Shown here one piece after another: positions 3,558-63,241 of a stretch of DNA of 64,000 bases (position 1 is the stretch's first letter; each line of letters starts with the position of its first letter). Where the stretch lies: positions 10,782 to 74,781 of IMG/VR virus record IMGVR_UViG_3300020577_007690. The stretch is one strand, 5' to 3'. The DNA comes from a virus. Lineage: Duplodnaviria > Caudoviricetes. The notes beneath the pieces were generated by a model. That model was not told the origin of the DNA. It saw only the letters and a list, made by a program, of their open reading frames with translations, and ran no database searches. The translations under genes and the position numbers were made by a program.

Positions 3558-3605
3558 AGTCTAACAACGAGCGCCCAGGTTTCTAACACCGGACGTTCGT
3601 TCAGG
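3558..3605 (-). promoter_or_regulatory. CTGAAC-box promoter 1
   Basis: Box 3589-3605 (sense CCTGAACGAACGTCCGG), TTAGAA-N17-TAGACT; 25 nt from box to -10. Confidence 0.75.
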
Positions 3606-3624
3606 AGAACGATGTCAGACGATG

Positions 3625-4053
3625 CTAGGTGGGCGGAGTCGTGACAATCGCTGTGGCGACCAGGCGCCACTCGCGATTGACCGCACTTCGAAGTGTTGCG
3701 GTGAAGGGGTGCCACTCGCCCATGACAAGGCGCTCTCCGGTGCGCTCATCGAGCGAGAGCCACGACCAGCGGTTGCCCCTGACGATGATGGCGTTGCAGT
3801 CATCTGCACGCTGCGGATCGCCATAGACGTAGAACAGATCGCCTGTCTGGATGCCCAGGATCAGCTCTTCGATGGGGCGCCTCGACAGCGCCTCCACGCG
3901 ATCCATGGGCGTCGTCGGCGCGAGACATCCCCCTCCGGGGTCCGTCTTCTCCTCGACGTAGGAAGAGGACTGTTGCGATGGTGCGATGCGTGTACGGCCC
4001 GATCTGGAACCGCCGGGAACCGTCGCCTCCTCGGTGAAGTCGCTGAACATCAT
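3625..4053 (-). CDS. Hypothetical protein
   Basis: GAGGGAGG SD upstream of ATG 4053; GC3-biased codons. Confidence 0.6.
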   Translation of the reverse strand: MMFSDFTEEATVPGGSRSGRTRIAPSQQSSSYVEEKTDPGGGCLAPTTPMDRVEALSRRPIEELILGIQTGDLFYVYGDPQRADDCNAIIVRGNRWSWLSLDERTGERLVMGEWHPFTATLRSAVNREWRLVATAIVTTPPT

Positions 4054-4133
4054 GAACCTCCCTCTGTCCCCCAGAGAAACGTGTGCCCTAAACACAGGCT
4101 GTGCAAGCGCAAGGGCAAAATCGTCACGCTCAC

Positions 4134-4181
4134 ATCGTATCTGTGGCAGGCCGCCACAGCAAGAGGGGACGTGCGTTCAGT
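4134..4181 (-). promoter_or_regulatory. CTGAAC-box promoter 2
   Basis: Box 4165-4181 (sense ACTGAACGCACGTCCCC), TTGCTG-N17-TACGAT; 25 nt from box to -10; hairpin at 4141-4159 within the spacer. Confidence 0.65.
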
Positions 4182-4199
4182 GAGCGAGCCTACATCTGA

Positions 4200-4493
4200 C
4201 TACGCCGAAAACTCCGGCAGACCTGGAAGCCAGGGAACCTTGTGCTTCGCCTCCTTGAAGCAGACCTTGCAGAAGCGCTTCTGGCCCCTGTCACTCGTCG
4301 GAACGCGCGACGGCGTCCACGTATTGCGCGGGTCCGGCATCGTCTTCGAATCGAGCAAGGCGGAGAGCTTCTCCGCAGGGGAGAGAGGCTCCAGCCTGTA
4401 CTTGCAGACCGTCGTGGTGCCACCGTCAAGGGTGCGATGCACGCGAGACGGCATGCGGCACGAATCGAGCCAGCCGATGCGGTGTCCACTCAT
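4200..4493 (-). CDS. Hypothetical protein with CxxC
   Basis: ATGA overlap with the upstream gene; CKVC motif. Confidence 0.6.
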   Translation of the reverse strand: MSGHRIGWLDSCRMPSRVHRTLDGGTTTVCKYRLEPLSPAEKLSALLDSKTMPDPRNTWTPSRVPTSDRGQKRFCKVCFKEAKHKVPWLPGLPEFSA

Positions 4494-4795
4494 GGGCTTC
4501 GCTTCGAAGCTTCCTGGCGAACAGCGTCGCAGGAGATCAGCTCGATGGGTGGTCCCGGCGGAAGAGCGCAGACCATGCCGTTGCGCACGCAGACGTTGAT
4601 GACGCCGCCGGTATACCCGGCAGTCTCCGCGCGCTCCACGATCACGTCGATCGCGTGGCACTGAAGGCACTGGTAGGGGCCGATGGCGATCGAGCCGTCT
4701 CCGAAGTGCGGACCCATCTTGTTGCGGGTCAGCCACTGGAAAGTCAGGCCGAGGTTGTCGGACTTGATGTCGATGCCTTTCCTCTTGCGACCCAT
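4490..4795 (-). CDS. Hypothetical Cys-containing protein
   Basis: GGAGG SD; CLQC motif. Confidence 0.6.
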   Translation of the reverse strand: MGRKRKGIDIKSDNLGLTFQWLTRNKMGPHFGDGSIAIGPYQCLQCHAIDVIVERAETAGYTGGVINVCVRNGMVCALPPGPPIELISCDAVRQEASKRSP

Positions 4796-4800
4796 CGCGA

Positions 4801-5376
4801 TCAGCCTCCCTTGCCGAAGCGAGCGCAGTTGTGAGCGCCGCACCATACGTCGATGAGGAACTCGCGCTCGATCTCCTTCTCGCCCCGCTTCCACTTCGCG
4901 TGCAGGATGAGATAGTCGATGTGATTCTTCTTCTCGACGTGGATGGGCGCGTTGCCGGCATCCAAGTAGACCTCCCAGCTCAGGGAGGCATCCGAGGGCA
5001 GACCCTCGATCGCGGAGCGTATGCGTGGTTGCTCGCAAGAGCCGAGGTGCCAGTACCCCTTGAGGGGGCGGTACGCCTCCGTGTAATGGTGGTACGGCGG
5101 CGCCCAGAAGTCGTTGCCGCTCTGGACCTTGACCAGCTTCGCGGGTAGCACGTCGGCTGCGTCAGTGTAGCCGTTGCGGACGATGCCCTTCATGGGCAGG
5201 TTGAAGGTCCCACCGCCGGACAGCTTGAAGTGGACGACGAAGTCGAAGTCGTCGCGCCACGAGTCGCGGCCCGGTGTCGCGTCGCCGTTCATGCCGATGA
5301 GCATGTACTTGCGCAGCGCGGAACGCAGTTGCACGAGTGTATCGTTGGGCTTGATGCGTGTCTCTTCGTTGACCAT
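4801..5376 (-). CDS. Hypothetical protein (191 aa)
   Basis: GATAGGAGG SD upstream of ATG 5376; strong GC3 bias. Confidence 0.7.
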   Translation of the reverse strand: MVNEETRIKPNDTLVQLRSALRKYMLIGMNGDATPGRDSWRDDFDFVVHFKLSGGGTFNLPMKGIVRNGYTDAADVLPAKLVKVQSGNDFWAPPYHHYTEAYRPLKGYWHLGSCEQPRIRSAIEGLPSDASLSWEVYLDAGNAPIHVEKKNHIDYLILHAKWKRGEKEIEREFLIDVWCGAHNCARFGKGG

Positions 5377-5611
5377 GATGGTCCTCCTATCGAGTTGGGA
5401 TAGGGGCCGCGCTTCGTACGCGGTCCACTGCGTTGGAGTCCCCAACCAGGCTTGGGATTCTTCGAACCCGCGAAGCCTGGTTGAGAATGCCGACACTCTG
5501 GCGTGTGGGTCGATTCAGAGGTGTCAGACTGGAACGACTGCGGCGAATGCGTTCCGCAGTCAGGACAAGTCCACCCCTTCTTGTGACCTAGCAGCTCAGC
5601 TACCGAGGCCA

Positions 5612-5815
5612 TCAGATGTACTCCACAGTCAGACGGTGGAAGCTCGTGCCCCAACGCCAGATCTGGAAGTACGACTGATCCTGCCATGTCATGCGCAGCT
5701 CGGGTCCGCACACGCAATCCGGGTGCAGAGCAGTCCGCGCCAGCGAGATGAACGGGCAATCCATCCGATCACGACCCACGTACAACGTTCGTCCAAACAA
5801 TCGAGCCAAGATCAT
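5612..5815 (-). CDS. Hypothetical protein
   Basis: GATAGGAGG SD. Confidence 0.55.
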   Translation of the reverse strand: MILARLFGRTLYVGRDRMDCPFISLARTALHPDCVCGPELRMTWQDQSYFQIWRWGTSFHRLTVEYI

Positions 5816-5885
5816 CGGCTCCTCCTATCGTTCATGACTGACGGCGAGTCGAAAGACTCGCGCGGCAGGGATGAAGGATGGAAGA

Positions 5886-6074
5886 TCAGGTGCGCGCCGC
5901 TGCGACGATCTTTTTGACCTCCGGGTCTCGCGATCGGTTGAGCATCTCGCACAGCGACCGACACATGGTGTCAGCGTCTGCTGGATGTGTTGCACCCTCT
6001 CGACCAATCGAGATGAACGGGCGATCGTCGAGGTAGATCTGCCGTCCAGCTTGCACGGTGAACTTCTTGGGCAT
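5886..6074 (-). CDS. Hypothetical protein
   Basis: GGAGG SD. Confidence 0.6.
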   Translation of the reverse strand: MPKKFTVQAGRQIYLDDRPFISIGREGATHPADADTMCRSLCEMLNRSRDPEVKKIVAAART

Positions 6075-7942: not shown

Positions 7943-8095
7943 TCAACGCCAATCCGCTGGCGCTACCTGTAGCATGTCGCGATCGTCACGCAAAACGATC
8001 GCGACATGCGCGGCATTCATTCGCCGCGCGCGGCGAATTGCAACGATCAGAGCAGACTCCGAAGGATTGACAACAATTATCCGTTTAGTTTCCAT
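7943..8095 (-). CDS. Small protein METKRIIVVN...(50 aa) starting inside the left inverted-repeat arm
   Basis: Start codon mirrors ATG 8537 in the right arm. Confidence 0.45.
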   Translation of the reverse strand: METKRIIVVNPSESALIVAIRRARRMNAAHVAIVLRDDRDMLQVAPADWR

Positions 8096-8195
8096 CTCTC
8101 ACTCCGTCCTTTCACCACCTAGTCTAGTCACGCTTCACAGGATTCCAACACTGAACAAACAACTATTTTGTTCAGTGCTGCTTTTCCTGTCCTAC
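8088..8195 (-). repeat. Left arm of ~107-bp inverted repeat
   Basis: Reverse complement of 8439-8544 apart from a 2-nt indel, one substitution and a small local rearrangement. Confidence 0.95.
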
Positions 8196-8297: not shown

Positions 8298-8438
8298 GGC
8301 TACAGGAGAGTAGGCAATTGGTCCAACCATCCGATATCTGACCATTGGATGGTAGGATATCCTACCTGTAGGTTATTGGATGGTTGGATAGGTGGTTATC
8401 GGATGGCTCAATGGTCCAACCATCCAATGTGTGCTGAT

Positions 8439-8544
8439 GTAGGACAGGAAAAGCAGCACTGAACAAAATAGTTTGTTGTTCAGTGTTGGAATCCGGTGAA
8501 GCGTGACTAGACTAGGTGGTGAAAGGACGGAGTGAGATGGAAAC
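8439..8544 (+). repeat. Right arm of ~107-bp inverted repeat, carrying an outward promoter, SD and ATG
   Basis: Contains CACTGAACAA..TTGTTCAGTG palindrome, TTGGAA-N16-TAGACT, GAAAGGA/GGAG SD and ATGGAAAC. Confidence 0.95.
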
Positions 8545-9158: not shown

Positions 9159-9719
9159 ATGGCACGGCTTGCCTTCCCAGACTTCACCGGGAAGCGCTTC
9201 GAGTTCGACACGCGGACCATGTACGAGGTCCGATCGTACGAGCTGTGCTGGTCTGAAGGAACCAAGAAGGAGGTCAAGATCCTCCGCCAGCGACCGGAAG
9301 GCGGCCTGGACGTCGTCGAGTTGACAGCGCTGTCTCCCTGGGACAACGGTCGCTGGTTCACCGAGGACTTACCCAAGAACATGCTCATCGTCGAGCGGCA
9401 CTACAGCGGCAACCGGCAGTACGTGACCTTCACCGCGGCGCCCGGCTCGACCTTCGTACCGCAAGGCTTGCTCGACAAGCCGCAGATGGAGCTGACGCGG
9501 GATGAGCGGATGGTGTTGCTTGCTCACAAGCAACTCACCTCTGCGGCCCGCCCAGCGAGCTATGTACGGAATGGCCTCAATCCGGCGCGGCTGGAAGCGG
9601 CGATCGTGTCCCTCGTGAGCAAGAAGTTGCTCACGCGAAACCGTGCCGGATCGTCCATGGCGACGATCGAAGGCAAGAACGTGGCGCGAACCTTGCCCGA
9701 AGCAGGTTCGTTCTACTGA
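9159..9719 (+). CDS. Hypothetical protein with possible C-terminal winged helix
   Basis: GC3 bias; C-terminal AAIVSLVSKKLLTRN. Confidence 0.65.
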   Translation: MARLAFPDFTGKRFEFDTRTMYEVRSYELCWSEGTKKEVKILRQRPEGGLDVVELTALSPWDNGRWFTEDLPKNMLIVERHYSGNRQYVTFTAAPGSTFVPQGLLDKPQMELTRDERMVLLAHKQLTSAARPASYVRNGLNPARLEAAIVSLVSKKLLTRNRAGSSMATIEGKNVARTLPEAGSFY

Positions 9720-9763
9720 ACGAACGTCCGGCCCTCGGCTGGACTCAGCCCGTGAGGTATGCT
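9715..9763 (+). promoter_or_regulatory. CTGAAC-box promoter 3
   Basis: Box 9715-9731 ACTGAACGAACGTCCGG; -10 TATGCT at 9758; 26 nt. Confidence 0.65.
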
Positions 9764-9794: not shown

Positions 9795-9887
9795 ATGTCC
9801 CTGATCAACAGGATTGAGCGCGGCGGCTTCGTGCTGTCGTGCGTGTTACTCGGCCTCGCCTACCGCCTGCTCAACAGGGGGCGGTGA
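9795..9887 (+). CDS. Very small hydrophobic peptide (30 aa)
   Basis: GAGGAGG SD; TGATG coupling to the next gene. Confidence 0.5.
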   Translation: MSLINRIERGGFVLSCVLLGLAYRLLNRGR

Positions 9888-10096
9888 TGGTGATCGTCAA
9901 GCTGGATGATCCGAAGTACCCGTCTGGACCCGGCACTGTCGTCGGGCACTGCAACTCCGTCGAGGAGTACCGCAAGCAGACGGAGGATCGCGACGGTGCG
10001 CCCAACCGCAACATGCGGCTGCGCCACGGTGACATGGCTATCGGCACGCGCGTCGCGACGGCGCAGTACCACGGTCCCAACAACAAGGAGCGCTGA
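9887..10096 (+). CDS. Hypothetical protein
   Basis: Translationally coupled on both sides. Confidence 0.55.
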   Translation: MVIVKLDDPKYPSGPGTVVGHCNSVEEYRKQTEDRDGAPNRNMRLRHGDMAIGTRVATAQYHGPNNKER

Positions 10097-10347
10097 TGGT
10101 CGAGTACCACGTCGACATGCCGAATGGGAGTACGCGCATCTGCAACGATGCGCAGCAGGCGCAACTTCTGGCGGTGTCGATCGCCATGACAGGGCGCACC
10201 GCTACGATCGACGTGGTCTGCTGGACGGAGGAGGATGCAAAGGCGTACGGCGGCGACGACGCTGTCAAACGTTACCGCGATGACCCCGACGCCTCTGTCT
10301 TCGATCGGATCGAGATCCGTGCGGAGAGCAAAGGCATGGTGCCCTGA
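10096..10347 (+). CDS. Hypothetical protein
   Basis: AAGGAG SD; GC3 bias. Confidence 0.65.
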   Translation: MVEYHVDMPNGSTRICNDAQQAQLLAVSIAMTGRTATIDVVCWTEEDAKAYGGDDAVKRYRDDPDASVFDRIEIRAESKGMVP

Positions 10348-10390
10348 ACGAACGTCAGGTGTTAGATCTGACGGACCGGATGATTAGACT
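10343..10390 (+). promoter_or_regulatory. CTGAAC-box promoter 4
   Basis: Box CCTGAACGAACGTCAGG, TTAGAT-N17-TAGACT; 25 nt. Confidence 0.8.
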
Positions 10391-10678
10391 AGAAACCAGG
10401 AGGGAACGATGATCCGCTACTAGATGGCAACGAGTTTTCCCGTGCAGTGTACAACCCAACTTGCGGGTTGGGTGCTGCGGTTCTGAGAGAGCGTCTGTCC
10501 AGGCACTGATGTTATGCGCTACCTGCGAAGGTAGAGAGCAAATTGGATTAGCCTGGCGGTCCCGAGGGCTTTTTGCCCTGAGCGATCGTACTTCCGGCGT
10601 GACGGCTAGGAAGGACAGAAGGAGGAGATGTCCCTCCCTGCTCAGGACCGCAGCACCGAACCCGCAACAGAGGAGCCC

Positions 10679-10870
10679 ATGACCATCAAAGCGTACTTCG
10701 AAGAGGCCGGGAGCGGTCGCAAGCCCGTTCGCATCAACATCGTCGACTTCAGTGCCTTCGTCCACGCCGGACCAGAAGAGTACGTGCCCGTGTTCCCGGA
10801 GGACGGCAACGAGAGCCAGTTCTTCGTGCTGAAGAAGACACTCACCGACCTGGAGGTGGTGAGCCTCTAG
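10679..10870 (+). CDS. Hypothetical protein
   Basis: AGAGGAG SD before ATG 10679. Confidence 0.6.
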   Translation: MTIKAYFEEAGSGRKPVRINIVDFSAFVHAGPEEYVPVFPEDGNESQFFVLKKTLTDLEVVSL

Positions 10871-11011
10871 GAGGCGCCCAGCTCTTGTGGGCTGGGTGCT
10901 GCTGTCAGACGGAAGCCGGATCTAGAGGCATGGCGAGCCCCGGCCGAAGGTCGCAAGACCCCATCGCGTCAATCTGACATCAGCACCGAACCCACAAGGC
11001 AGGAGGATCGA

Positions 11012-12280: not shown

Positions 12281-12289
12281 GATGGTGTC

Positions 12290-12800: not shown

Positions 12801-12856
12801 GATGAGGCCGAGCGACTGAACGATCCGAGGTAGTCCTGAACGATAGGAGGTTTCCC

Positions 12857-13249: not shown

Positions 13250-13252
13250 TTT

Positions 13253-13937: not shown

Positions 13938-13993
13938 TCCTCGCACAAGGCTAGACGCGGCGGGCGCAGATCGCGTACCTTGCAGTGGTCTAG

Positions 13994-14338: not shown

Positions 14339-14341
14339 GAC

Positions 14342-52126: not shown

Positions 52127-52249
52127 GGGGCCAGGATAACATGGGCGCGGACGTTCAGTGTTGCGCTCCGTCGCCTACATTGCTACCTTCTCCCTGCGCT
52201 CGCGGCACGGTCCTCCTGCCTGCTTCTTCATGCCGCCGCCGCGGGCGCG

Positions 52250-53899: not shown

Positions 53900-53942
53900 G
53901 CCACCATCTCACCACAGCGAGAGCTGTGAGGGCAACAGGTGT

Positions 53943-55392: not shown

Positions 55393-55745
55393 CGCTCTGT
55401 CCAGTGCCCGACCTTGGTTCCGGTCTCGTCGTACTTGATGCCTTGTGCAGCAGGACGAGGCAGCGCCTCCTGCGTGAAGGGTGGACCTGTTAGCCACGAG
55501 CAGTTGATGAAGTTCAGCACCGTATCCATCCGGTTGAGCGGGATCGTGCCCTCACCGGGGACAAAGACGTGAAGAGAGACGTAGCCGCTGTAGGAGAACT
55601 CGAAGCCTGGGGTCAGCGGAGCGGAGTCGCCTTTCTTCCCCCAGCACTCGGTGATGATCGCGGCCAGCTTGCGCGGCGCGTTCGAAGGTCCGGCGATGTA
55701 GAACACCACGTCTCCAAGACGCGGCGTACAGGGAGGTTTTTCCAT
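55389..55745 (-). CDS. Hypothetical protein (SH3-like)
   Basis: PRLGDVVFY...AAIITECW. Confidence 0.6.
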   Translation of the reverse strand: MEKPPCTPRLGDVVFYIAGPSNAPRKLAAIITECWGKKGDSAPLTPGFEFSYSGYVSLHVFVPGEGTIPLNRMDTVLNFINCSWLTGPPFTQEALPRPAAQGIKYDETGTKVGHWTER

Positions 55746-55819
55746 GCCGGTAACGCTACTCGACTCGACGCCGACACCGCAATCCTGAACATCCGGCTGC
55801 CCCGTGATAGACTGTCGTC

Positions 55820-56902
55820 ATGGCGTACAAGCTCACCTCTGGCAGCCTTTCCGAAGGCGCCCTCCAGGCGCACAACAAGAGCCACAGCGACCGCTCACAC
55901 GCTGGGTGCTCCCACTTCGACGGTCCTGACTGGTCGAGCGGGTCGAGCCCCGCAGAACAGACCGTCGACAAGACGCTGGTTGCGAGCGGCGTGACCGCAG
56001 CGCCGACCTACGGCAGCACGACGGGTCTGACGCACGCGCTGCTCGTCTTCGAGGAGGTGCGGCGCATCCACAACCTGGAGCACCGGCTGAACCACAACAG
56101 CGGCGCCGCTGTCGGCACCTACCCCTACGGGGTGTGGGCGCACAAGGCGGCGGAGGCATCTTCGACGGAGATCACGACCGGCTCCTACCCGACGATGCCG
56201 ACCGGGTCCGCCGCCGAGACCGCGCTCTTCTCCGCCATGTACCCGCTGGCGAACGACCTGCTCAACCAGTACGAGCTGGGCCACCGTCGCGACAAGAAGT
56301 ATCTCGACGGGACCACGGTCGACTTCCACACCACCGACGACGTCATCAACTACCTCGGCACGGTGACGCTGCTGACCGGGTCGAACAACAAGAACGACCT
56401 GGCCGAACGCGCCAACCTGCTTCAGCGCGTCATCGTCGCCCACCTTCGCAAGGCGGGTGGCACGCACAGCGCCGCCGACACCGCGCGTGCGGACGTCCTC
56501 GAAGCGATCACCCCAGCGGCGAGCGGGGACGACTGGGACGCCATCAAGCTGGTGCTCGAAGGCTGCCAGGCGGCGCTCGATGGGCACCGAGCCGACGCCG
56601 GCATCCACGCGAACGCCGACACGTTCAACGACGTCACCGCGACGATCACGATGCCGGCGACGCTGATCGGCGCAGGGACGCTCCCACGGGGCATCCTGAC
56701 GCTGTACATGCAGCACCTGACCGCTGTGGACAGCGGCGGCGCCCCCATCCATGCGAACACGCCTGGCGGCGCGGAGCTGCTGACCTACAGCAACCCGACC
56801 ACCATCGCCACGCTCATCGCCGCCGCCGCAGAGCTGTACGTCGCACAGCCTGCGCACCAGCGCTCGGCACCCATCAGCCAGGCTCTGCGCTTCCTCAGCT
56901 AG
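55820..56902 (+). CDS. His-pair repeat protein, probably virion-associated
   Basis: 5-6 repeats of helix-H-x(6-19)-H, several followed by x3-D; strong codon bias; leaderless start. Confidence 0.7.
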   Translation: MAYKLTSGSLSEGALQAHNKSHSDRSHAGCSHFDGPDWSSGSSPAEQTVDKTLVASGVTAAPTYGSTTGLTHALLVFEEVRRIHNLEHRLNHNSGAAVGTYPYGVWAHKAAEASSTEITTGSYPTMPTGSAAETALFSAMYPLANDLLNQYELGHRRDKKYLDGTTVDFHTTDDVINYLGTVTLLTGSNNKNDLAERANLLQRVIVAHLRKAGGTHSAADTARADVLEAITPAASGDDWDAIKLVLEGCQAALDGHRADAGIHANADTFNDVTATITMPATLIGAGTLPRGILTLYMQHLTAVDSGGAPIHANTPGGAELLTYSNPTTIATLIAAAAELYVAQPAHQRSAPISQALRFLS

Positions 56903-57258
56903 GCGACCTTCGCCAGCTTCCTCAGCTTCTCGAAGAGGGCGCGCAGATCGAAGGGCTTCGTCACGAGCCCGTCGGCGCCCGACTCCACCACCGCCGTCTT
57001 CCCTCTCGAATTCGATGCTGCGGTCATCAGCAGCACAGGCAGGCGCTCACAGACGAAGCGCTTGGAGAGCGCGATACCGTCCAGGCCGGGCATGCAGACG
57101 TCCACCAAGCAAACGTCCGGCTTGACAAGATCAGCCACAGTGATAGCCAGCTCACCCGAATCAGCCACCGCCACCTCAAACCCTTCATCCTGCAAGATAT
57201 CAGCGAGCGTTTCTCGAATCCTCCCATCGTCGTCCACCAAAAGAACCATCGTAGCCAT
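56899..57258 (-). CDS. Stand-alone response-regulator receiver domain (CheY-like)
   Basis: LLVDDD, PDVCLVDVCMPGLDG (phospho-Asp), LMTA and KPF all intact. Confidence 0.9.
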   Translation of the reverse strand: MATMVLLVDDDGRIRETLADILQDEGFEVAVADSGELAITVADLVKPDVCLVDVCMPGLDGIALSKRFVCERLPVLLMTAASNSRGKTAVVESGADGLVTKPFDLRALFEKLRKLAKVA

Positions 57259-57264
57259 GCACAG

Positions 57265-57312
57265 AACATGGGCCTTTTGAAATTAAAAGGAAAGTGCGAA
57301 CGTGCGTTCAGT
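57265..57312 (-). promoter_or_regulatory. CTGAAC-box promoter 7 (response regulator, leaderless)
   Basis: Box 57296-57312; TTTCCT-N17-CATGTT-6nt-ATG; 25 nt. Confidence 0.65.
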
Positions 57313-57386
57313 ACAAGGCGATGGCGACGATGGTGAGGCGCTTTGCTACAGCGTGGCGGGAGAGAACTAGAACGGTAGTTCGAAAA

Positions 57387-57707
57387 CTACGAAGACTTCT
57401 TCGACTTCTTGGGCTCGCGGACGGTGACGATGGTTTCGTCCGCCATCACAAGCAAGTCGTCGATGACCGTGAACGCGCTCATCGCTTTGTCCGCCCGGTC
57501 CTTTATCTTCGACACGTCGAGAAGGTAGTTGGCGAGCCCGATGGCCGTTTCGTGCGAGAGATGCACGCACTCCTGACTCGCAGTAACACCCCCATCTGTC
57601 ACCTCGTTGAGCACGTCGACTGCTCGTTTCGTCTCCGCGTCAGGCTTCCACTTGGGCTTCTTCTCTTCCTTGAGGACAGTGATGCCATCGTTCTTCTGCT
57701 TGCTCAT
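57387..57707 (-). CDS. Hypothetical protein
   Basis: ATGA overlap with the Dam gene. Confidence 0.6.
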   Translation of the reverse strand: MSKQKNDGITVLKEEKKPKWKPDAETKRAVDVLNEVTDGGVTASQECVHLSHETAIGLANYLLDVSKIKDRADKAMSAFTVIDDLLVMADETIVTVREPKKSKKSS

Positions 57708-58564
57708 GACCATGCCTTTCCGATGAGGAAGATGAGTTCTTTGCACCCATCTCTGTTGTGACCCTCGCTATTGACGGAGCGTCGCGCGTGGACAGCCTCC
57801 ACACGCCAGGGAATCTTGGTGCCGAGGATCTGATGCGCCAGATCCTCCATGCAGGAGTAGCTGCCGCTGGAGAGCATGACGTTCGCCCCACGCGACGCGG
57901 CGGTGAGGCAGCACTCGATCAGGTGCCGATCCTCCTTCTCGTCCCAGCCCTTGGCGGTGTATTGCGTGTATCCGCCACTGTACGGCGGATCGCAGTACCA
58001 GAACGAGCCCACTCGGCAGAAGTCGACGAACGCAGACACGAAGTCCATGTGATCGATCTTCACGCCGCGCAGCGCCGACGACGCGGCACGTAGGTTGTCG
58101 ATGTCGAAGACGGGCGGAACGACCTCCTTCTTGTTGTTGCGACCGATCGGCGTGTTGAACAGCCCGCCGCGGTTGTAACGCACCACGCCGTTCATGCAGG
58201 CGCGGTTGAGCCAGAGGAAGCGCGCCGCCGCGGTCTTGGTCGGACCAGGTAGCTTGTTGCGCAACTGGTAGTAGTAGGTCTCGAAGCCCTCCTTCTCGGC
58301 GAACTTCATCATCATCGACAGGTCTGCCTGTAGACCGTCAACGTCGTCGCGGACCCGCTTGTACGTGCTCACGATGTCGTTGTTGTAGTCGGAGAGGTAG
58401 ACATCCTTGTCCGCGAGCACGCCCTTCTCCTGAAGCGCGAAGAACAGCGCGCCGCCGCCGAGAAAGACTTCATGATACGAAGTAAAACTCTCCGGGACAT
58501 ATTTCGTCAGCTCCGGCAGGAGCTGTCGCTTGCCGCCGACGATGCGAAGGATGGGCTCAGCCAT
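57704..58564 (-). CDS. dam: Dam-family N6-adenine DNA methyltransferase
   Basis: GGKRQL, YHEVFLGGGALFF, FLWLNRACMNG..RYN..G.FNTPIG and DPPY. Confidence 0.9.
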   Translation of the reverse strand: MAEPILRIVGGKRQLLPELTKYVPESFTSYHEVFLGGGALFFALQEKGVLADKDVYLSDYNNDIVSTYKRVRDDVDGLQADLSMMMKFAEKEGFETYYYQLRNKLPGPTKTAAARFLWLNRACMNGVVRYNRGGLFNTPIGRNNKKEVVPPVFDIDNLRAASSALRGVKIDHMDFVSAFVDFCRVGSFWYCDPPYSGGYTQYTAKGWDEKEDRHLIECCLTAASRGANVMLSSGSYSCMEDLAHQILGTKIPWRVEAVHARRSVNSEGHNRDGCKELIFLIGKAWS

Positions 58565-59042
58565 GTGCGTGTCTCTTTCCGTTCTTTATGCGGTTGATGG
58601 ACGATGGGTGTACGCCGAGATCCTTGGCGATGGCTGTACACGTTTCGGAATTGAGTCTCCGCTTGATGAGCGGCACAAGCGGGGCGAGATCGACGTATCT
58701 CTTGTGCCGTTGATATGTCATGTCTGCGGCGCTACCCCAGAACAGGTTCTCCAGGCGGTTGTCAGCCTGGACACGATTCTTGCGTAGTGCAAAATGCCTC
58801 TTCGGGCGCGGCCCGACAAAAGCGAGCAGCACCAGCTCCCCGACTGTTCTGTGCCCACCGACGGCGCCAAGCGCTGCGTATTGCACGCGACCTTGCATGA
58901 AGAGTCGCATGACGCGCGGCTTGCCCGTGCGCTGGAACGAACGGACGCGGCCGAGGTTCGACACCTGGTAGCGCCGCTCGAAGCCGGGTATCCACCGCCA
59001 CTCTTCAGGCGCTTCTGGCGACATGATCGACCATGTAGCCAC
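58557..59042 (-). CDS. NUMOD4-HNH protein with degenerate active site and C-terminal HTH
   Basis: EEWRWIPGFERRYQVSNLGRVRS; VHRLV replaced by VGELV and HNH His missing. Confidence 0.75.
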   Translation of the reverse strand: MATWSIMSPEAPEEWRWIPGFERRYQVSNLGRVRSFQRTGKPRVMRLFMQGRVQYAALGAVGGHRTVGELVLLAFVGPRPKRHFALRKNRVQADNRLENLFWGSAADMTYQRHKRYVDLAPLVPLIKRRLNSETCTAIAKDLGVHPSSINRIKNGKRHAHG

Positions 59043-59166
59043 GAACGATGCTCATCAACCGCCCGCAGCCGCAACAGTACACCTTGTAGTTCCGCTTGAG
59101 GATGCGGCCGTTTTTCTTGAACAGAGAACCGCTCACCCAACACTGGTTCTTGTAGCGCGTCTTCAT
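59005..59166 (-). CDS. Small Cys-containing protein
   Basis: CCGC; TGATG coupling. Confidence 0.45.
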   Translation of the reverse strand: MKTRYKNQCWVSGSLFKKNGRILKRNYKVYCCGCGRLMSIVRGYMVDHVARSA

Positions 59167-59432
59167 CAGTACGCCTCTCCCGGGTAGCACCACGCCTCGA
59201 CGCAGCGCCACTCTCCTGTGGGTTCCAGCCAGAACGTGGCCTCGAATCGGTCTGGTTTGAGCATGATGCCCTTGAACGATCCGTTCCAGACGTACACTCG
59301 CCTCGTATCGGCCACCATACGCGAGAGCGCGCAGCGCGCCAGATACTCCGCACCCTTCCTCTGAAGGGTGGCGATCTCTTCAGGCGTTGGTGTGTACCGG
59401 ATGCGCTCAGCGATGTTAGGCAGCATCCCCAT
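59166..59432 (-). CDS. Hypothetical protein
   Basis: AGGAG SD. Confidence 0.55.
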   Translation of the reverse strand: MGMLPNIAERIRYTPTPEEIATLQRKGAEYLARCALSRMVADTRRVYVWNGSFKGIMLKPDRFEATFWLEPTGEWRCVEAWCYPGEAY

Positions 59433-59808
59433 CTCCTACCGAAAACTGGCGGTCGCAGCGCGAGCACTGGTACTGAAAGCTCCCCTTGAACGCGATGTCG
59501 CCGTGACAGAACGGGCAGAAGTTGGCGCTCAGAGCCAGGGGCGCCGGGAACTTGTCCGCCAGCTCGAAGCCGCTCGTCATGGTGCCCGCCTTGAGCCACC
59601 CCTTCCTGCGCAGCGCCTTGAGACGGCACCACACAGCGTGCGTGGTGATGCGGAACTCGCCGCACACGTCGCGGATGGTCGCGTGCGGGTTGTCGATGAT
59701 GTAGCGCAACGTCTGCTCCTGCACGACAGAGAGCAGCACGGAGCCGTGTCGGTGCGCTTCGAGATCCTGCGGCGACAGCGGCCCTCGCCTACGTTTTTGA
59801 GCGTCCAT
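59416..59808 (-). CDS. LexA-type winged-helix DNA-binding domain fused to a zinc ribbon; no S24 peptidase domain
   Basis: LSVVQEQTLRYII...TIRDVCGEFRITTHAVWCRLKALRRKGWL matches the LexA N-terminal pattern; C-terminal CPFC...CSRC. Confidence 0.7.
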   Translation of the reverse strand: MDAQKRRRGPLSPQDLEAHRHGSVLLSVVQEQTLRYIIDNPHATIRDVCGEFRITTHAVWCRLKALRRKGWLKAGTMTSGFELADKFPAPLALSANFCPFCHGDIAFKGSFQYQCSRCDRQFSVGDGDAA

Positions 59809-59815
59809 GGAACGG

Positions 59816-59864
59816 AGCATGCGTTAAGTAGACGATTCCTGGCAAGCCCGTACGTCTGTTCAGC
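59816..59864 (-). promoter_or_regulatory. CTGAAC-box promoter 8 (LexA-like gene)
   Basis: Box CCGTACGTCTGTTCAGC, 16/17 to CTRHAMRYBYGTTCAGS; TTGCCA-N18-CATGCT; 26 nt. Confidence 0.7.
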
Positions 59865-59939
59865 GTCGGTGCGGACTCGCACCTATAGGCGGTCGGAGCA
59901 GCTTGATATACTGTGGGGGAGCACACCGACGGAGACTCG

Positions 59940-60422
59940 ATGCGCGTCCAAGCAACCAAGATTCAAGATCTCGCGCGAGGCACGCACTCGCGCATTGCGG
60001 ACTCAACGGCTATGGACCCCGATCGGACTGGTCCGATCGTAGCGAAGGACAGGAAGCAGATCTGGGTAGGAGAGTTGAGGAGGTTCAAGGGGTGGTTCGG
60101 CAAGTGGGCTCTGCACGAGAGCGCCACGTCGCTCGACCATGCGTTCCGGTATCCAGGCTCGCGCCTCATCATCAGGGGTCCGGTGCAGCTCGTCACTGGA
60201 CCCGTCGCAGACTACAAGGTCTTCAGCAACGACGTGGTCGAGGAGCGCACGAAGGAGTACGACGAGCTGTCACAGCGAAGGGAAGTCAAGGCGGTCGTTC
60301 GCACGCTGAACAGCGTGTACGAAGTCCAGGTGCTCCCGAACAAGGAGTACGTGGAGAAGATGCTCGGACCAGAGGCGGTCGCACGCGCCAAGGAGATCGC
60401 CGACAGCGAAGACTCCATCTGA
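59940..60422 (+). CDS. Hypothetical protein, divergent from the LexA-like gene
   Basis: TATACT -10 and GGAG SD upstream. Confidence 0.65.
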   Translation: MRVQATKIQDLARGTHSRIADSTAMDPDRTGPIVAKDRKQIWVGELRRFKGWFGKWALHESATSLDHAFRYPGSRLIIRGPVQLVTGPVADYKVFSNDVVEERTKEYDELSQRREVKAVVRTLNSVYEVQVLPNKEYVEKMLGPEAVARAKEIADSEDSI

Positions 60423-60465
60423 ACGCTCGTTCCCTCTCGACGCTGCCATTCGTGCGGCGTACTCT
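60418..60465 (+). promoter_or_regulatory. CTGAAC-box promoter 9 (leaderless)
   Basis: Box 60418-60434; TCGACG-N17-TACTCT-6nt-ATG 60472; 25 nt. Confidence 0.65.
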
Positions 60466-60471
60466 CCTCTC

Positions 60472-60669
60472 ATGAAAGAGATCAGCGCCAGCACAAAGCG
60501 TAGCCTCGTCGGGCTGCTCCTGTTTCCGCAGCTTCGTCCGCCGGAGACGTACGTGCTCAAGAACGCCGGCTACTGGGACGACAAGAACGAGTGCCTCACA
60601 CCAGCAGGTAGGGAAGTCGCGCTCGTCGTGCTAAAAACGACGATGCGGCTTCATGGGTTGGTCCCATGA
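60472..60669 (+). CDS. Small hypothetical protein
   Basis: Leaderless start; ATGA overlap downstream. Confidence 0.6.
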   Translation: MKEISASTKRSLVGLLLFPQLRPPETYVLKNAGYWDDKNECLTPAGREVALVVLKTTMRLHGLVP

Positions 60670-61460
60670 GTGATCAACTCTCTCCTGGCGATTCGTGCCT
60701 GGTCGATGTCAACCCGAAGAAGGGGTTCGACCGACGTCCTGACTGGCAGCCTGGTGTTGTCAGCGAGGCAGTTGGCAAGGGATACATGGTGGCGCTGGAC
60801 TCCGAACCAGAGAAGCAACAGTGGTATCCAGCGAAGATCGTCAAGCCTGGGCGGAAAGTGACGGCGCTCTCCGACATGACCGCAAAGGAATTCGTCGCAC
60901 GAGCGCAGCAAGACCCGCGTGAGGTTCTACAGGTCACGCCGCGTAATCCATGGGTCGCAAGCAGCGGACGATCTGCGGACGATCCGCAGTGGGAAGAATA
61001 TCAAGCGGTGCTCAAAGCACAGCCAAAGCCGGACAAGCCGGAGAAGAGCCCCGCCTTCCTGGCGTTCTGCCGTCAGCGCGAGTGCCAGAACCCCGGGTGC
61101 GGCACGCCACCACCGAACGAAGCGCACCACCAAGGCACCGGCAGCAATGAACGCGGCGTCGGGCAGAAGGTGCGGGACACGAAGTGTGTGACGCTCTGCA
61201 ACTACTGCCATGCGATCTACACAGGCGGTCCAGGCAGGCCGAGCCTGCAACTCCCTGACCGGCAGGCGACAGCACAGGAGAAGAGCCTGGTGCTCCGCTC
61301 GAAGGAAGAGACTGAGCTGATCCTGCGACGGGCGCAGATGGAGACCATCCGCGAGGCGCTGAACTACCTGCCCATCGAGAAGCGGGTCGAGGTGCTCAGC
61401 AAGGCGCTGGCGCTCATGCCAGAAGAGCTGCTAGAAGAGTACCTACCCAAGTCGTGTTGA
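60666..61460 (+). CDS. DUF968/Ref-like HNH-fold protein with N-terminal Tudor-like domain
   Basis: AFLAFCRQREC..CG...EAHH..G..G.GQKVRD..CVTLCNYCH. Confidence 0.7.
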   Translation: MSDQLSPGDSCLVDVNPKKGFDRRPDWQPGVVSEAVGKGYMVALDSEPEKQQWYPAKIVKPGRKVTALSDMTAKEFVARAQQDPREVLQVTPRNPWVASSGRSADDPQWEEYQAVLKAQPKPDKPEKSPAFLAFCRQRECQNPGCGTPPPNEAHHQGTGSNERGVGQKVRDTKCVTLCNYCHAIYTGGPGRPSLQLPDRQATAQEKSLVLRSKEETELILRRAQMETIREALNYLPIEKRVEVLSKALALMPEELLEEYLPKSC

Positions 61461-61915
61461 CCATACTCTGCCGCTCCTGCCGCACACGCACCACGCTAGC
61501 TCCTGGCGCGACCTACCCGCGCTGCTGCACCAAGCCTGACCTCGTCAACGAGGCTGCTCGCGCTTCCGTGAAGAAGGCGGGCGTGATGAATGGCACCGAG
61601 GCTGCCTACGCGCTCGTATTAGAAGAGCGCAGGCGCCTCGGGCTCATTCGAGAGTGGTCGTACGAGTCCGAGAAGCTGACCATCGCCTACCGCTGCAAGT
61701 ACGTCGTCGATTTCCGTCTCGTGATGCCCGATGGCTCCATCGAGTACCACGAGATCAAGGGCAGCAAGCGCAACGGGCGCTTCTACACGCGGGACAAGGG
61801 GCTGATCAAGATCAAGGTAGCGGCGACCCGATACTCAGATCGCCGCTTCTACATCGTGTGGAAGGTGAAGGGGGAGTGGCGGCAGGAGCTGGTCCCGCCA
61901 GAGGCTAGCGGCTGA
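61454..61915 (+). CDS. DUF1064-like PD-(D/E)XK nuclease
   Basis: MNGTEAAY...YE..KLTIA...YVVDF...HEIKG...KIKVAA. Confidence 0.75.
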   Translation: MLTILCRSCRTRTTLAPGATYPRCCTKPDLVNEAARASVKKAGVMNGTEAAYALVLEERRRLGLIREWSYESEKLTIAYRCKYVVDFRLVMPDGSIEYHEIKGSKRNGRFYTRDKGLIKIKVAATRYSDRRFYIVWKVKGEWRQELVPPEASG

Positions 61916-62234
61916 ACGGCCCGTGCGGTACGACGAATACAGCGAGCACGATCACAGCGCACGACAGAAGCACCAGGCGGACCAGCAGCTCGCCGATGAT
62001 GACGCCGCGCTGGGTGCTCAGACGCGGACCAGAGACCGCGCGACCGCGCGCCAGGAAGCCGTCATGACGCCCGCACAGGTAGGCGAACGCCGCAGCGTAG
62101 GCTGTCGTCATGATGGAGAAGGCGCGGAAGTTGGTCGGGATGCTTGTGGTGCAGATGACCACGCCGACCGCGAGCACGAGGATCGAGAGGAGAAGGACAG
62201 GGATGATCATGTGACCGGACTGAGTGTTTCGCAT
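61905..62234 (-). CDS. Membrane protein (3 TM)
   Basis: Three hydrophobic segments. Confidence 0.6.
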   Translation of the reverse strand: MRNTQSGHMIIPVLLLSILVLAVGVVICTTSIPTNFRAFSIMTTAYAAAFAYLCGRHDGFLARGRAVSGPRLSTQRGVIIGELLVRLVLLSCAVIVLAVFVVPHGPFSR

Positions 62235-62247
62235 GTACGTTCCTTTG

Positions 62248-62688
62248 TCAGTTGACGAGTGTCAAGGCAGGGCGTAGTCGGAGTCGACCGTCGATGGCGT
62301 CCATGGCGTGCTGCGCGAGCTTCTCCGCGACGCGATCACGGATGGTGTTCCAGCGCTTCTTCCCTTGCTCCGCGCGCTCCAAGCCGCAGTGGATGATGCG
62401 CTCCTGTTGCAGCTTGTCGAGCCACTCCGGGAGGCTACGATCGAGGCCGATCATGGCGTTGGTGAAAGACGTAGGCAGGTTGTGCCCCTTCTCCAGCTCC
62501 TCGATGGCGATGTCGATGGTGGGGAGCGCCTCGGTCATGAGCGACATGAGCTGCGCTTCGACCTCGGCCTGATCGGCAGAAGCCAACAGCTCGAACATGC
62601 CCGCCTCGCAGGCGAGCTGCATCCTGGCGATGATGGCGCGCATCGTGGTGCGGAGAGAGCGGAACTTGTCCAGGGTGTCAGTGCTCAT
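62248..62688 (-). CDS. Helical hypothetical protein
   Basis: GAAGG SD before MSTDT; GC3 bias. Confidence 0.6.
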   Translation of the reverse strand: MSTDTLDKFRSLRTTMRAIIARMQLACEAGMFELLASADQAEVEAQLMSLMTEALPTIDIAIEELEKGHNLPTSFTNAMIGLDRSLPEWLDKLQQERIIHCGLERAEQGKKRWNTIRDRVAEKLAQHAMDAIDGRLRLRPALTLVN

Positions 62689-62932
62689 CGACCTTCTTCC
62701 TTGCGGCAGCGCCGCTCCTTGTCCCATTTTATGAAGCACGGGGTGCAGCGGCCAAGCAAGAGAGGCGCCGCGCCACATTCGCATATGTTCTGTACTGCCC
62801 CAAAGCCAGCTAGATAGGTTTGCTCAATACCACGTATCTCGGCAGAGATGATTTGCAAACTTCTCTCTATGGTGAATAGCTCTTTCGGCATCGCTTGGTG
62901 CGATACTCCCCACTTCGGCGGGAAGAATCAAT

Positions 62933-62980
62933 GCTGAACGTGCGTTCTTACTTGTGCTACAGCCCCTACATGAGCAGGAT
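62933..62980 (+). promoter_or_regulatory. CTGAAC-box promoter 10 (leaderless)
   Basis: Box 62933-62949; TTGTGC-N17-CAGGAT-6nt-ATG 62987; 25 nt. Confidence 0.65.
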
Positions 62981-62986
62981 TGAGCC

Positions 62987-63199
62987 ATGAGCGCACACAT
63001 CATCACTCCGAAGCGCCGTATCGAGTTCACCATCCGCGAAGGGGACCGCGTCGCCAAGACCATCGTGCTCGACGCGGATCGAGTCATCATCGCCAAGGAT
63101 CTGGACGGCAAGACCCATGTCGAGCTGATCGGCGATGAGGCGCCTCCGGCTCCGCTGCGCCGGATGCCTGCGCCGCAGTCCGCACGCCTGACGCACTGA
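62987..63199 (+). CDS. Small beta-rich protein
   Basis: Leaderless start; GC3 bias. Confidence 0.6.
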   Translation: MSAHIITPKRRIEFTIREGDRVAKTIVLDADRVIIAKDLDGKTHVELIGDEAPPAPLRRMPAPQSARLTH

Positions 63200-63241
63200 A
63201 CGAACGTCAGGGCTAGATTCCCCTGTAGCCGCTGTTAGAAT
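63195..63241 (+). promoter_or_regulatory. CTGAAC-box promoter 11
   Basis: Box ACTGAACGAACGTCAGG; CTAGAT-N17-TAGAAT with extended TG; 24 nt. Confidence 0.8.

Follow-up and report, generated by a model that had tools for sequence, protein, structure and literature searches.

A LexA-like box at one fixed distance from the promoters of an uncultured 75-kb phage

Predicted promoters of an uncultured 75-kb phage (contig of 74,781 bp) are preceded by a recurring box that resembles the binding site of LexA, the DNA-damage repressor of bacteria, and the question is which protein reads this box and whether it turns the promoters on or off. We analyzed a 64,000-nt stretch of the contig, called the window. 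A preliminary description had counted 11 boxes in it as one regulon; all of these were recovered, with coordinates at most 1 nt off, and the 11 listed -10 hexamers were all correct. The regulon is, however, larger than claimed. The contig contains 13 boxes, each joined to a promoter at an identical distance, and in addition two related palindromes with a 13-nt spacer (N13) at the main early promoters (Table 1).

With the first position weight matrix (PWM), 13 sites on the whole contig scored at least 20 bits and the next best 10.8 bits; PWM scores of the 13 boxes were 14.6-30 bits. In the whole-contig comparison with shuffled sequence that had been proposed, a retrained PWM gave 15 hits of at least 12 bits versus 0-3 in each of ten Markov-shuffled copies. 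Six boxes have the exact 13-mer CTGAACGAACGTC in common; the reversed pattern, searched on the contig as a control, had no copy. After correction of gene starts all 13 boxes are non-coding (p ~8e-12, based on ~14% of the contig being non-coding), and all have the orientation of the unit downstream, as claimed. The consensus CTRHAMRYBYGTTCAGS, which is that of M. xanthus LexA (Sheng et al. 2021, PMC9705874), is matched at 13-16 of 17 positions by the 11 window boxes, in agreement with the earlier count, and at 12 and 13 positions by the two boxes beyond the window; random positions have a mean of 10 matches, and 1.75% of them reach 13.

The box forms a palindrome of 8+8 nt, CTGAACGn followed by ACGTTCAG. 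Its GAAC-N4-GTTC core with CTGAAC half-sites is of the Cheo/Myxococcus LexA-box type, as had been proposed, and promoters of cellular lexA genes contain this core too. Conservation is symmetric (C1/G16, G3/C14, C6/G11, G7/C10), which fits binding of a dimer. The right half is imperfect in 8 of the 13 boxes (GTC[AC]; GTC[AC]G is one base out of register). The complete module reads CTGAACGnACGT[TC]Cnnn, one base, a TTG-type -35, 16-18 nt and a [TC]AnnnT -10. The TTG-like -35 begins at position 19 in every module, and [TC]AnnnT is found at offset 40-42 in 13 of 13. The pattern of box-to--10 gaps was described correctly, with values 1 nt too high (24-26 claimed, 23-25 recomputed). Transcription is predicted to start ~7 nt past the -10, often at the A of a leaderless ATG; such an ATG stands at offset 53-55 in six modules and opens ORFs of 61-130 codons (binomial p = 1.6e-6). 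None of the modules passed a strict scan for the sigma-70 consensus, and their -35-like hexamers are weak. The putative promoters are recognized by positional conservation, not by consensus strength; the available RNA data are assembled contigs, a form that hides the 5' ends of transcripts.

Table 1. Boxes, promoters and candidate reader genes. Positions are those of the window unless the contig is named; SD, Shine-Dalgarno sequence.
Feature	Position	Strand	Elements	Downstream unit or remark
Module 1	3558-3604	-	box CTGAACGAACGTCCGGT 3588-3604; -35 TTAGAA 3581-3586; -10 TAGACT 3558-3563	SD-led genes 3232-3540, 2275-3207 (weak ParB_N match), 1958-2278
Module 2	4134-4180	-	box CTGAACGCACGTCCCCT 4164-4180; -35 TTGCTG; -10 TACGAT	~80-nt leader, then gene 3625-4053 (142 aa, no assigned function)
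Module 3	9716-9763	+	box CTGAACGAACGTCCGGC 9716-9732; poor -35 CTCGGC; -10 TATGCT	30-aa membrane peptide 9795-9887, then 9887-10096, 10096-10347
Module 4	10344-10390	+	box CTGAACGAACGTCAGGT 10344-10360; -35 TTAGAT; -10 TAGACT	+ strand gene run 10628-15283, including the sigma-70 region-4 protein
Module 5	20755-20800	+	box CTGAACGAACGTCAGGT 20755-20771; -35 TTGGAA; -10 TATGAT	candidate RNA; ~590 nt without credible ORF
Box 5, reverse side	20734-20770	-	box, 6 nt, -10 TAGCAT 20743-20748, 6 nt, ATG 20734-20736	gene 19492-20736; predicted operator centre ~-26.5; repressor geometry
Module 6	22614-22659	+	box CTGAACGAACGTCAGGC 22614-22630; -35 TTGGAA; -10 TATGCT	lipoprotein 22694-23362, DUF7481-like
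Box 6, reverse side	22597-22629	-	box, TG, -10 TAGAAT 22606-22611, 6 nt, ATG 22597-22599	baseplate wedge gene 21397-22599; predicted operator centre ~-22.5
Module 7	57265-57311	-	box CTGAACGCACGTTCGCA 57295-57311, perfect GAAC-N4-GTTC; -35 TTTCCT; -10 CATGTT	receiver-domain protein 56899-57258; leaderless ATG at 57258
Module 8	59816-59863	-	box CTGAACAGACGTACGGG 59847-59863; -35 TTGCCA; -10 CATGCT	LexA-like gene; leaderless ATG at 59808
Module 9	60419-60465	+	box CTGAACGCTCGTTCCCT 60419-60435, perfect GAAC-N4-GTTC; -35 TCGACG; -10 TACTCT	leaderless ATG 60472 (65 aa), then 60666-61460, 61454-61915
Module 10	62934-62980	+	box CTGAACGTGCGTTCTTA 62934-62950, perfect GAAC-N4-GTTC; -35 TTGTGC; -10 CAGGAT	leaderless ATG at 62987 (70 aa)
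Module 11	63196-63241	+	box CTGAACGAACGTCAGGG 63196-63212; -35 TAGATT; -10 TAGAAT	63285-63560 and 63565-63864
Box pair beyond window, back to back	contig 5583-5599 and 5610-5626	- and +		ribbon-helix-helix (RHH) gene behind the pair
Left early promoter	8093-8175	-	CTGAAC 8151-8156, 13 A/T-rich nt, GTTCAG 8170-8175; TTGGAA 8143-8148, 16 nt, TAGACT 8121-8126, SD, ATG 8095	within 99-nt inverted repeat
Right early promoter	8459-8539	+	CTGAAC 8459-8464, N13, GTTCAG 8478-8483; TG, TTGGAA 8486-8491, 16 nt, TAGACT 8508-8513, SD, ATG 8537	mirror copy of the left
LexA-like protein	59419-59808	-	130 aa; LexA N-terminal domain (winged helix)	candidate box reader
Sigma-70 region-4-only protein	13994-14338	+	114 aa; 37.7 bits	in module 4 gene run

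The contig (G000) was compared with three other phages, G002, G003 and G006. G003 (IMGVR_UViG_3300020576_006644) is an uncultured 113-kb phage with 40% terminase identity to G000; it holds ~31 module copies and G002 holds 5, next to the 13 in G000; relatives other than G003 have the module as well. The box-to--35 distance has zero variance over these ~49 modules of three diverged phages, which bears out the claim of a fixed distance, and the spacers are unrelated and carry no information. An invariant distance with unrelated spacers points to stereospecific contact with RNA polymerase, as in the case of the phage protein gp6 of GIL01 (PMC6182141). G003 resembles G000 in the module itself (CTGAAC-N4-GTTCnGG-ATTGC), in a box-preceded gene for a LexA-domain protein that lacks S24, in divergent leaderless structural promoters that share one box, and in the synteny of tail and baseplate genes. 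In G003 the -35 is strongly ATTGC; in G000 it is looser.

The protein encoded at 59416-59808 had been called LexA-like, and it is indeed a homologue of the LexA N-terminal domain in which the S24 peptidase domain is absent; a CPFC...CSRC zinc ribbon forms its C-terminus. Its Pfam LexA_DNA_bind score of 16 bits falls short of the cut-off. When its family profile was compared with the PDB, the nine best matches were LexA structures (E 2e-5 to 1e-3) and spanned the whole DNA-binding domain. The topology of its AF2 model is alpha1-3 plus wing, and superposition on LexA from T. maritima gives 2.0-2.6 A. LexA_DNA_bind proteins without S24 adjoin a box in G000, G002 and G003. Their recognition helices differ (RITTHAVWC in G000, RSTNGVNDH in G003, RATPGAHEC in G002), although the boxes are nearly identical; hence the phage protein may not be the common reader. 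The G003 protein keeps the cellular helix and has an extra N-terminal HTH, whereas that of G000 combines a diverged helix with the zinc ribbon. Furthermore, the complete and unrelated phage G006, which has no protein in common with G000, contains a single perfect module, and no LexA-like gene was detected in it. Either LexA or a phage protein had been suggested as the reader; G006 favours a host reader more than that suggestion allowed.

The fact that 13 LexA-like sites lie at one promoter distance in a phage with its own cut-down LexA-like protein indicates that LexA-type proteins probably switch a whole class of phage genes. With a probability of roughly 0.5, we regard the boxes as operators for LexA-type winged-helix proteins, held in fixed register in one class of phage promoters and likely to serve forward activation. 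A dimeric LexA-fold protein would sit on the palindrome, centred at ~-45.5 to -47.5; it could be the phage 130-aa protein, host LexA, or both in competition. On the -35 side it would most likely aid RNA polymerase in a class-II-like manner, as gp6 does from -43.5. On the divergent -10 side (the baseplate-region genes at 20736 and 22599) it would cover the -35/spacer region and block transcription, so that boxes with both flanks in use would act as two-way switches. Many forward cores are weak, above all in G003, and weak cores that fail a strict sigma-70 scan are typical of activator-dependent promoters. Counting against activation, the predicted centre lies 2-4 bp upstream of the gp6 site and 4-6 bp upstream of the classical -41.5.

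The closest known case is GIL01, a tectivirus of Bacillus thuringiensis that uses host LexA with gp7, plus gp6 (Fornelos et al. 2018, PMC6182141). Late promoter P3 of GIL01 is activated from a palindrome by gp6, which is a truncated homologue of LexA (PMC6182141). Both phages encode only the DNA-binding half of LexA, carry LexA-type boxes in their promoters, with a palindrome just upstream of or over the -35 (a predicted location in G000), and have no detected classical CI repressor. GIL01, however, has three promoters, and its gp6 site (GACACAC-GTGTGAC) differs from its LexA boxes; G000 has a single LexA-type site 13 times (~31 in its relative) at one fixed distance, a sheathed tail, a 75-kb genome and a zinc ribbon on the LexA-like protein.

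Lambda CI at OR2 activates PRM and represses PR from one operator region. Likewise, a dimeric repressor-type protein beside the -35 could aid one promoter and block the divergent one, a geometry matched at boxes 20755 and 22614. The analogy is one of mechanism only, since the folds differ, and the phage lacks a cooperative operator triplet and has many dispersed copies.

Repression alone is a possible but clearly less probable explanation. Host LexA and/or the uncleavable phage copy would shut the promoters on either flank. On the -35 side, it would take up the position of the alpha-CTD/UP element and encroach on sigma region 4; LexA cleavage in the SOS response would release the promoters, and the fixed distance would be the best-repressing arrangement. 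Almost every known LexA acts as a repressor. The Cheo-type LexA (SOS) box is CGAACRNRYGTTYC, and the cellular lexA promoters that were fetched carry TAGAACGCGCGTTCAG. Where full-length cellular LexAs have the RSTNGVNDH helix, as in the G003 protein, G[AT]AC-N4-GTTCAG occurs in 48 of 58 lexA promoters, between TTGACG and the -10; these promoters are self-repressed, and the reverse-side baseplate promoters of G000 share their geometry, a textbook one for a repressor. Several boxes with an imperfect right half precede cores equal to those of the box-less early promoters (TTGGAA/TTAGAA-N16/17-TAGACT), so these promoters may need no activator; the equivalent stretch of the early promoters is A/T-rich and UP-element-like. 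The G006 module without a phage LexA-like gene also suits repression by the host. Against this, no core element is covered by an operator whose end lies 2 nt upstream of the -35, and repressor sites usually vary in position, as do the box centres on the reverse side (-22.5 to -33.5), whereas the forward distance is constant. The weakness of many forward cores is a further argument. In addition, searches of G000 and of the complete G003 turned up neither a tyrosine nor a serine integrase; an SOS-inducible prophage lifestyle is therefore not evident. Cheo and M. xanthus boxes share the GAAC-N4-GTTC core and the GTTCAG end with those of G000, and the first 12 nt of box 59847-59863, reverse-complemented, occur in the lexA operator of M. 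xanthus (PMC9705874); however, the cellular boxes lie between -35 and -10 or at varying places, before repair genes, and those of G000 upstream of the -35, before phage accessory genes.

It is improbable that another conserved phage protein reads the box and that the likeness to LexA is coincidental or secondary. The 114-aa region-4 protein is a rival candidate for this role or for that of a late-gene factor; of two sigma region-4 proteins described previously, it is the one above the Pfam cut-off on the contig. It and the RHH protein, whose gene itself lies behind a box, are each conserved at 41% identity in G003, whereas divergence keeps tblastn from linking the LexA-like proteins, and region-4/GerE-type HTH dimers are able to bind palindromes beside a -35. 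However, the palindrome is, base for base, the operator of cellular lexA promoters, LexA-domain genes adjoin boxes in three phages, no box precedes the G003 RHH homologue, and the module occurs in G006, which shares no protein with G000.

A non-regulatory repeat (a chance motif, a recombination or packaging signal, or the remnant of a duplicated promoter cassette) is very improbable: the identical 13-mer and similar -35 flanks of six copies could reflect recent copying, but shuffled controls give only 0-3 hits, spacers and flanks are unrelated, the module persists at 40% terminase identity and also in the unrelated G006, and the copies deviate far from chance in placement, orientation and ATG phase.

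The targets had been described as accessory functions, not core structural genes. Structural genes are involved too, as boxes 20755 and 22614 also overlap leaderless promoters that point the other way, into genes of the baseplate region, including a wedge gene. The label "ParB operon" for the module 1 genes is based on a Pfam match with an E-value of 0.009. The DUF7481 lipoprotein family, to which the module 6 product is similar, is commonest in Myxococcota and gives the sole hint of a host.

The eleven boxes reported in the preliminary description are all present (11/11), and recomputation bore out the hexamers, the gaps and the 13-16 matches to the 17 positions of the M. xanthus consensus. 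A scan of the whole contig with a position weight matrix added two boxes, which lie back to back beyond the window. With the first matrix all 13 boxes scored at least 20 bits, vs 10.8 bits for the next best site. A retrained matrix gave 0-3 hits in ten Markov-shuffled genomes. Every box (13/13) is non-coding and faces the unit downstream of it. Six boxes have the exact 13-mer CTGAACGAACGTC in common, and the head and tail block (22630-57295) contains none.

All 13 modules follow one plan, which consists of the 17-mer box, one base, a TTG-like hexamer, 16-18 nt and a [TC]AnnnT hexamer (13/13). The TTG-like hexamer starts at module position 19 in every module, and the spacing to the second hexamer is of the sigma-70 type in 13/13; the spacers themselves are not conserved (information near 0). 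Measured against E. coli promoters the hexamers are weak, and in a strict sigma-70 consensus scan no module reaches 9 of 12 matches. On the forward side, i.e. that of the promoter whose -35 adjoins the box, the box ends 2 nt upstream of the -35 and overlaps no core element. Six modules have an ATG 6-7 nt past the -10, at offset 53-55 (p = 1.6e-6), which opens a leaderless ORF of 61-130 codons. We consider it almost certain that each module joins a promoter to the operator of a binding protein. An UP element was ruled out because the box is G+C-rich and palindromic. The box could also have been an ECF-sigma promoter, with a GGAAC-like -35 and a CGT-like -10 separated by 16-17 nt and a start about 7 nt further on; this was ruled out on spacing, since no more than 4 nt separate GAAC from CGT, and the position of the leaderless ATGs, 53-55 nt from the first base of the box, does not agree with it either.

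Coordinates of the features discussed in the text (window positions unless another source is named)
Feature	Position	Strand	Description
Box-pair locus (L007)	contig 5360-5945		two boxes 10 nt apart
Box of the pair	contig 5583-5599	-	
Box of the pair	contig 5610-5626	+	
Inverted repeat	8097-8195 / 8439-8537		99 nt, 97% complementary
Repeats between early promoters	8319-8433		direct and inverted copies of TGGTCCAACCATCC / ATTGGATGGTTGGA
Module 4 box	10344-10360	+	
Downstream of module 4	10391-10430		SD, then mini-ORF ATG ATC CGC TAC TAG
Region-4 protein	13994-14338	+	114 aa; Pfam 37.7 bits; 41% identity in G003
~400-aa gene	15854-17089	-	
~400-aa gene	17101-18273	-	
~400-aa gene	18277-19473	-	
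~400-aa gene	19492-20736	-	
~400-aa gene	21397-22599	-	baseplate wedge
Receiver domain	56899-57258	-	119 aa; Pfam 89.5 bits
LexA-like protein	59419-59808	-	130 aa; predicted winged helix and C-terminal four-cysteine zinc ribbon (CPFC...CSRC)
LexA-domain protein of G003			184 aa; extra N-terminal HTH and winged helix
LexA-domain protein of G002			235 aa; LexA winged helix after a second, similar-looking N-terminal segment (read by eye, uncalled by Pfam)
Module locus of G006	G006 37835-38099		box, ATTGCTA, CACCAT, leaderless ATG at offset 55

The pair of boxes outside the window drives divergent leaderless genes, whose products are a 61-aa ribbon-helix-helix protein (weak RHH_5 match, conserved in G003) and a 93-aa protein; such a layout resembles that of a small genetic switch. 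Downstream of module 4 a Shine-Dalgarno sequence precedes a mini-ORF of four codons, and a new ATG directly follows its stop codon. A stand-alone response-regulator receiver domain is encoded behind a leaderless box module.

Conservation in the phage and its relatives is symmetric across the box (C1/G16, G3/C14, C6/G11, G7/C10), which makes the box an 8+8 palindrome with the halves CTGAACGn and ACGTTCAG. Judged from its sequence, this palindrome, GAAC-N4-GTTC, is a LexA box of the Cheo/Myxococcus type. The 8-base core is perfect in three of the 13 boxes (57295, 60419, 62934) and has one mismatch in nine and two in the box at contig 5610 (GAGC, GTCA). Eight of the 13 take a second form, CTGAAC-[GA]A-ACGTC[AC]-GG, in which the right half is one base out of register and the module length is kept. 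Because both forms recur in G003, a 113-kb relative, the difference is a maintained one rather than noise. The printed M. xanthus operators of lexA (CTACACGTCTGTTCAGG) and recA2 (CTAAAAGCGCGTTCAGG) agree with the pattern of the phage box and the cellular operators, and the box at 59847-59863 has 12 consecutive bases in common with the former (PMC9705874).

A terminase profile identified relatives in IMG/VR whose terminases are 40-51% identical and whose head, tail and baseplate genes are syntenic; four of these contigs were examined in full. The complete genome of G003 (112,623 bp) contains about 31 modules of the form CTGAAC-N4-GT[TC]C-nGG-ATTGC, about 10 of them with a leaderless ATG at offset 53-56, and five, three and two modules were counted in G002 (a fragment), G005 and G001. 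The distance from box to -35 is invariant across about 49 modules of three diverged phages. The present phage is a second, more diverged carrier of the module system of G003. Collections of viral and of bacterial genomes contained no match to the exact 23-nt module pattern. When the 16-nt box was searched by itself, IMG/VR returned 25 single matches, of which 24 stand without promoter context and look like chance; the remaining one (L029) is a real module in G003, at site 79596.

Three of these phages encode LexA-domain proteins (see the table). In a six-frame Pfam search the LexA_DNA_bind family (PF01726) was matched by G002 with 37.6 bits and by G003 with 33.8 bits, both over the Pfam cut-off of 23.7, while the match of the present phage (59416-59808) is weak, with 16-16.9 bits. 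The latter protein has few relatives; for a profile of this family, the nine PDB entries that match best are all LexA structures (E 2e-5 to 1e-3). The alignment spans LexA residues 3-71, the whole DNA-binding domain, with the signature LT.RQ...L..I...P..RE...S..AV...L.AL..KGW...SR..L. An AF2 model (pLDDT 73) contains helices alpha1-3 and a wing, and its superposition with T. maritima LexA gives 2.0-2.6 A; Foldseek returned only generic winged-helix matches for it (E > 0.001), which do not discriminate LexA vs MarR, and a model from the single sequence was poor (pLDDT 57). The S24 peptidase domain (PF00717) had no match in this phage or in G001, G002, G003 and G005. Since the protease half is absent, the 130-aa protein is best read as a LexA-domain relative and is not a LexA. 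An IMG/VR search for relatives of the 130-aa protein turned up a single weak locus, which has no box. A 114-kb contig encodes a LexA-zinc-ribbon protein (P0054) with 61% identity to it. In each of the three phages the LexA-domain gene adjoins a box, and in the present phage and G003 it is the leaderless gene of a forward module.

The full-length LexAs closest to the G003 domain have the identical recognition helix, RSTNGVNDH. We retrieved 80 metagenomic lexA loci of this kind (L071-L150) and counted promoter elements in 58 upstream regions. These promoters have the form TTGACG-ata-GaACGcgcGTTCAG-tagcct-N(about 10)-ATG. Of the regions, 48/58 contain G[AT]AC-N4-GTTCAG, and 56/58 have GTTCAG at -24 to -19 relative to the start codon. 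It follows from this pattern that the phage box is the stronger half of a real lexA operator taken twice. The same sequence thus appears to serve also as the operator of cellular lexA promoters, where it would mediate autoregulation. Across many metagenome samples the promoter of these lexA genes is nearly invariant (TTGACG-ATA-GAACGCGCGTTCAG-TAGCCT), with the start codon about 10 nt past the -10.

The comparative evidence supports a LexA-type reading of the boxes, and we estimate a probability of about 75% that the reader has a LexA-type winged helix. Two features point to a reader from the host. The box is constant while the recognition helices of the phage proteins differ (RITTHAVWC in the present phage, RSTNGVNDH in G003 and RATPGAHEC in G002). 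Furthermore, a complete 46.7-kb phage with 68% G+C and terminal repeats (G006, IMGVR_UViG_3300044842_000216) has one perfect module, in front of a leaderless gene for a 69-aa membrane protein; it shares no protein with the present phage and has no LexA_DNA_bind match at E <= 1. The odds are slightly in favor of host LexA taking part, and much the same can be said for a phage LexA-domain protein. Less likely readers are the 114-aa region-4 protein and the ribbon-helix-helix protein encoded behind the outside box pair, both of which are conserved in G003. The former consists of little beyond sigma-70 region 4; its gene, which adjoins the tail and baseplate block, belongs to the run that module 4 heads, and the protein could be a late-gene factor.

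The arms of the inverted repeat carry two mirror-image strong promoters. These early promoters read TTGGAA-N16-TAGACT, followed by a Shine-Dalgarno sequence and ATGGAAAC, and upstream of each is CACTGAAC-N13(A/T-rich)-GTTCAGTG. Their half-sites are 13 nt apart, vs 4 nt in the boxes; the promoter-proximal one is at most 1 nt off the register of the box to the -35, and the distal one lies another 9 bp away from the promoter. The direct and inverted repeats between the two promoters have an iteron-like look and may mark an origin.

A LexA-type protein at the boxes could act by simple repression, which is the usual role of LexA. Several variant-B modules have good cores, and where the two strong early promoters have the matching stretch, it is an UP-like spacer rich in A/T. 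On the other hand, the invariant forward distance across the roughly 49 modules of three diverged phages, the unrelated spacers and the weak cores argue for a stereospecific, positive contact of the bound protein with RNA polymerase. A precedent is gp6 of GIL01 (PMC6182141). This truncated LexA homologue acts from a palindrome centered at -43.5, and its activation of transcription is described as rare among LexA homologues. The present phage also encodes a truncated LexA homologue, and its box centers lie at -45.5 to -47.5 from the leaderless ATG, a likeness in geometry only. Taken together, we infer that the effect on the forward side is somewhat more probably positive than negative.

On the reverse side, i.e. 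that of a divergent promoter on the other flank of the box, the geometry is different. Many boxes of G003 and G002 lie between divergent promoters; the far side has no -35 but a good -10 (TAGGAT, TAGCAT), 9-13 nt from the palindrome in most cases and further in a few, and a structural gene with a leaderless ATG comes next (sheath-like, baseplate or portal). The present phage has two such sites on its minus strand, box-GTGTTG-TAGCAT-GAAGAC-ATG behind box 20755 and box-TG-TAGAAT-TCACTC-ATG behind box 22614, which lead into the fourth and fifth ~400-aa genes of the table. Here the box covers the -35/spacer region. The operator centers vary from -22.5 to -33.5, as expected for a repressor site, and the reverse-side baseplate promoters are laid out as in a lexA promoter under self-repression. 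The five ~400-aa genes are consecutive and look paralogous; two match one G003 gene (tblastn), and only the last belongs to a known family. Opposite-strand inserts, a candidate RNA and a lipoprotein, separate the last genes of the run, and the layout in G003 is the same.

One bound LexA-fold protein might work as a two-way switch, helping an accessory or middle promoter on one side and blocking a structural promoter on the other. If host LexA were lost in the course of infection or DNA damage, or if the phage's uncleavable LexA domain competed for the sites, the whole genome would flip from one program to the other. That a lineage of large phages without integrase runs most of its non-early transcription on SOS-repressor operators, with two-way switches and a genome-wide flip, is an unlikely extension of these data.

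Phages such as GIL01, CTX-phi and coliphage 186 use LexA at single promoters. The phages studied here are a poorly known environmental group, sampled from wastewater, rivers and freshwater, and build a LexA-type site into the architecture of 13 to about 31 promoters per genome; in this genome-wide use of the LexA fold they also differ from GIL01. A literature search on myxophages and LexA gave no description of such a module system. If the reading is true, borrowed SOS-repressor specificity can be the basis of an entire temporal or conditional class of phage genes, class-II-type activation by LexA-fold proteins can occur outside tectiviruses, and a single operator between two divergent promoters can have opposite outcomes. 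The module would also be a compact, portable promoter-operator unit for GC-rich hosts.

The phage contig is linear and 74,781 bp long (the window covers its bases 10782-74781), with an estimated completeness of 84% and 63% G+C. Its large terminase (549 aa) was named from homologues; the other named genes encode the portal, a baseplate wedge subunit, a DNA methyltransferase, an HNH endonuclease, ParB-like proteins and a dUTPase, and the tail sheath is a weak match only. Most of its proteins have no family match, and most box target genes matched nothing in PHROGs or Pfam. No tyrosine or serine integrase was found in the genome, and neither tRNA genes nor Rfam families were found within the window. 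A megablast of 24 kb against cultured phages gave no match, and in tblastn the terminase reached only 21-26% identity to cultured phages, so this route gave neither a cultured relative nor a host. A terminase profile search found no prophage in bacterial genomes. The sole hint to the host is a lipoprotein of the DUF7481 family, which is commonest in Myxococcota. Contigs from three wastewater metatranscriptome runs and one river metagenome match the phage at 95-100% identity over most of 44001-64000, and these assembled sequences cover structural and accessory parts alike. The strain variants among them are mostly transitions.
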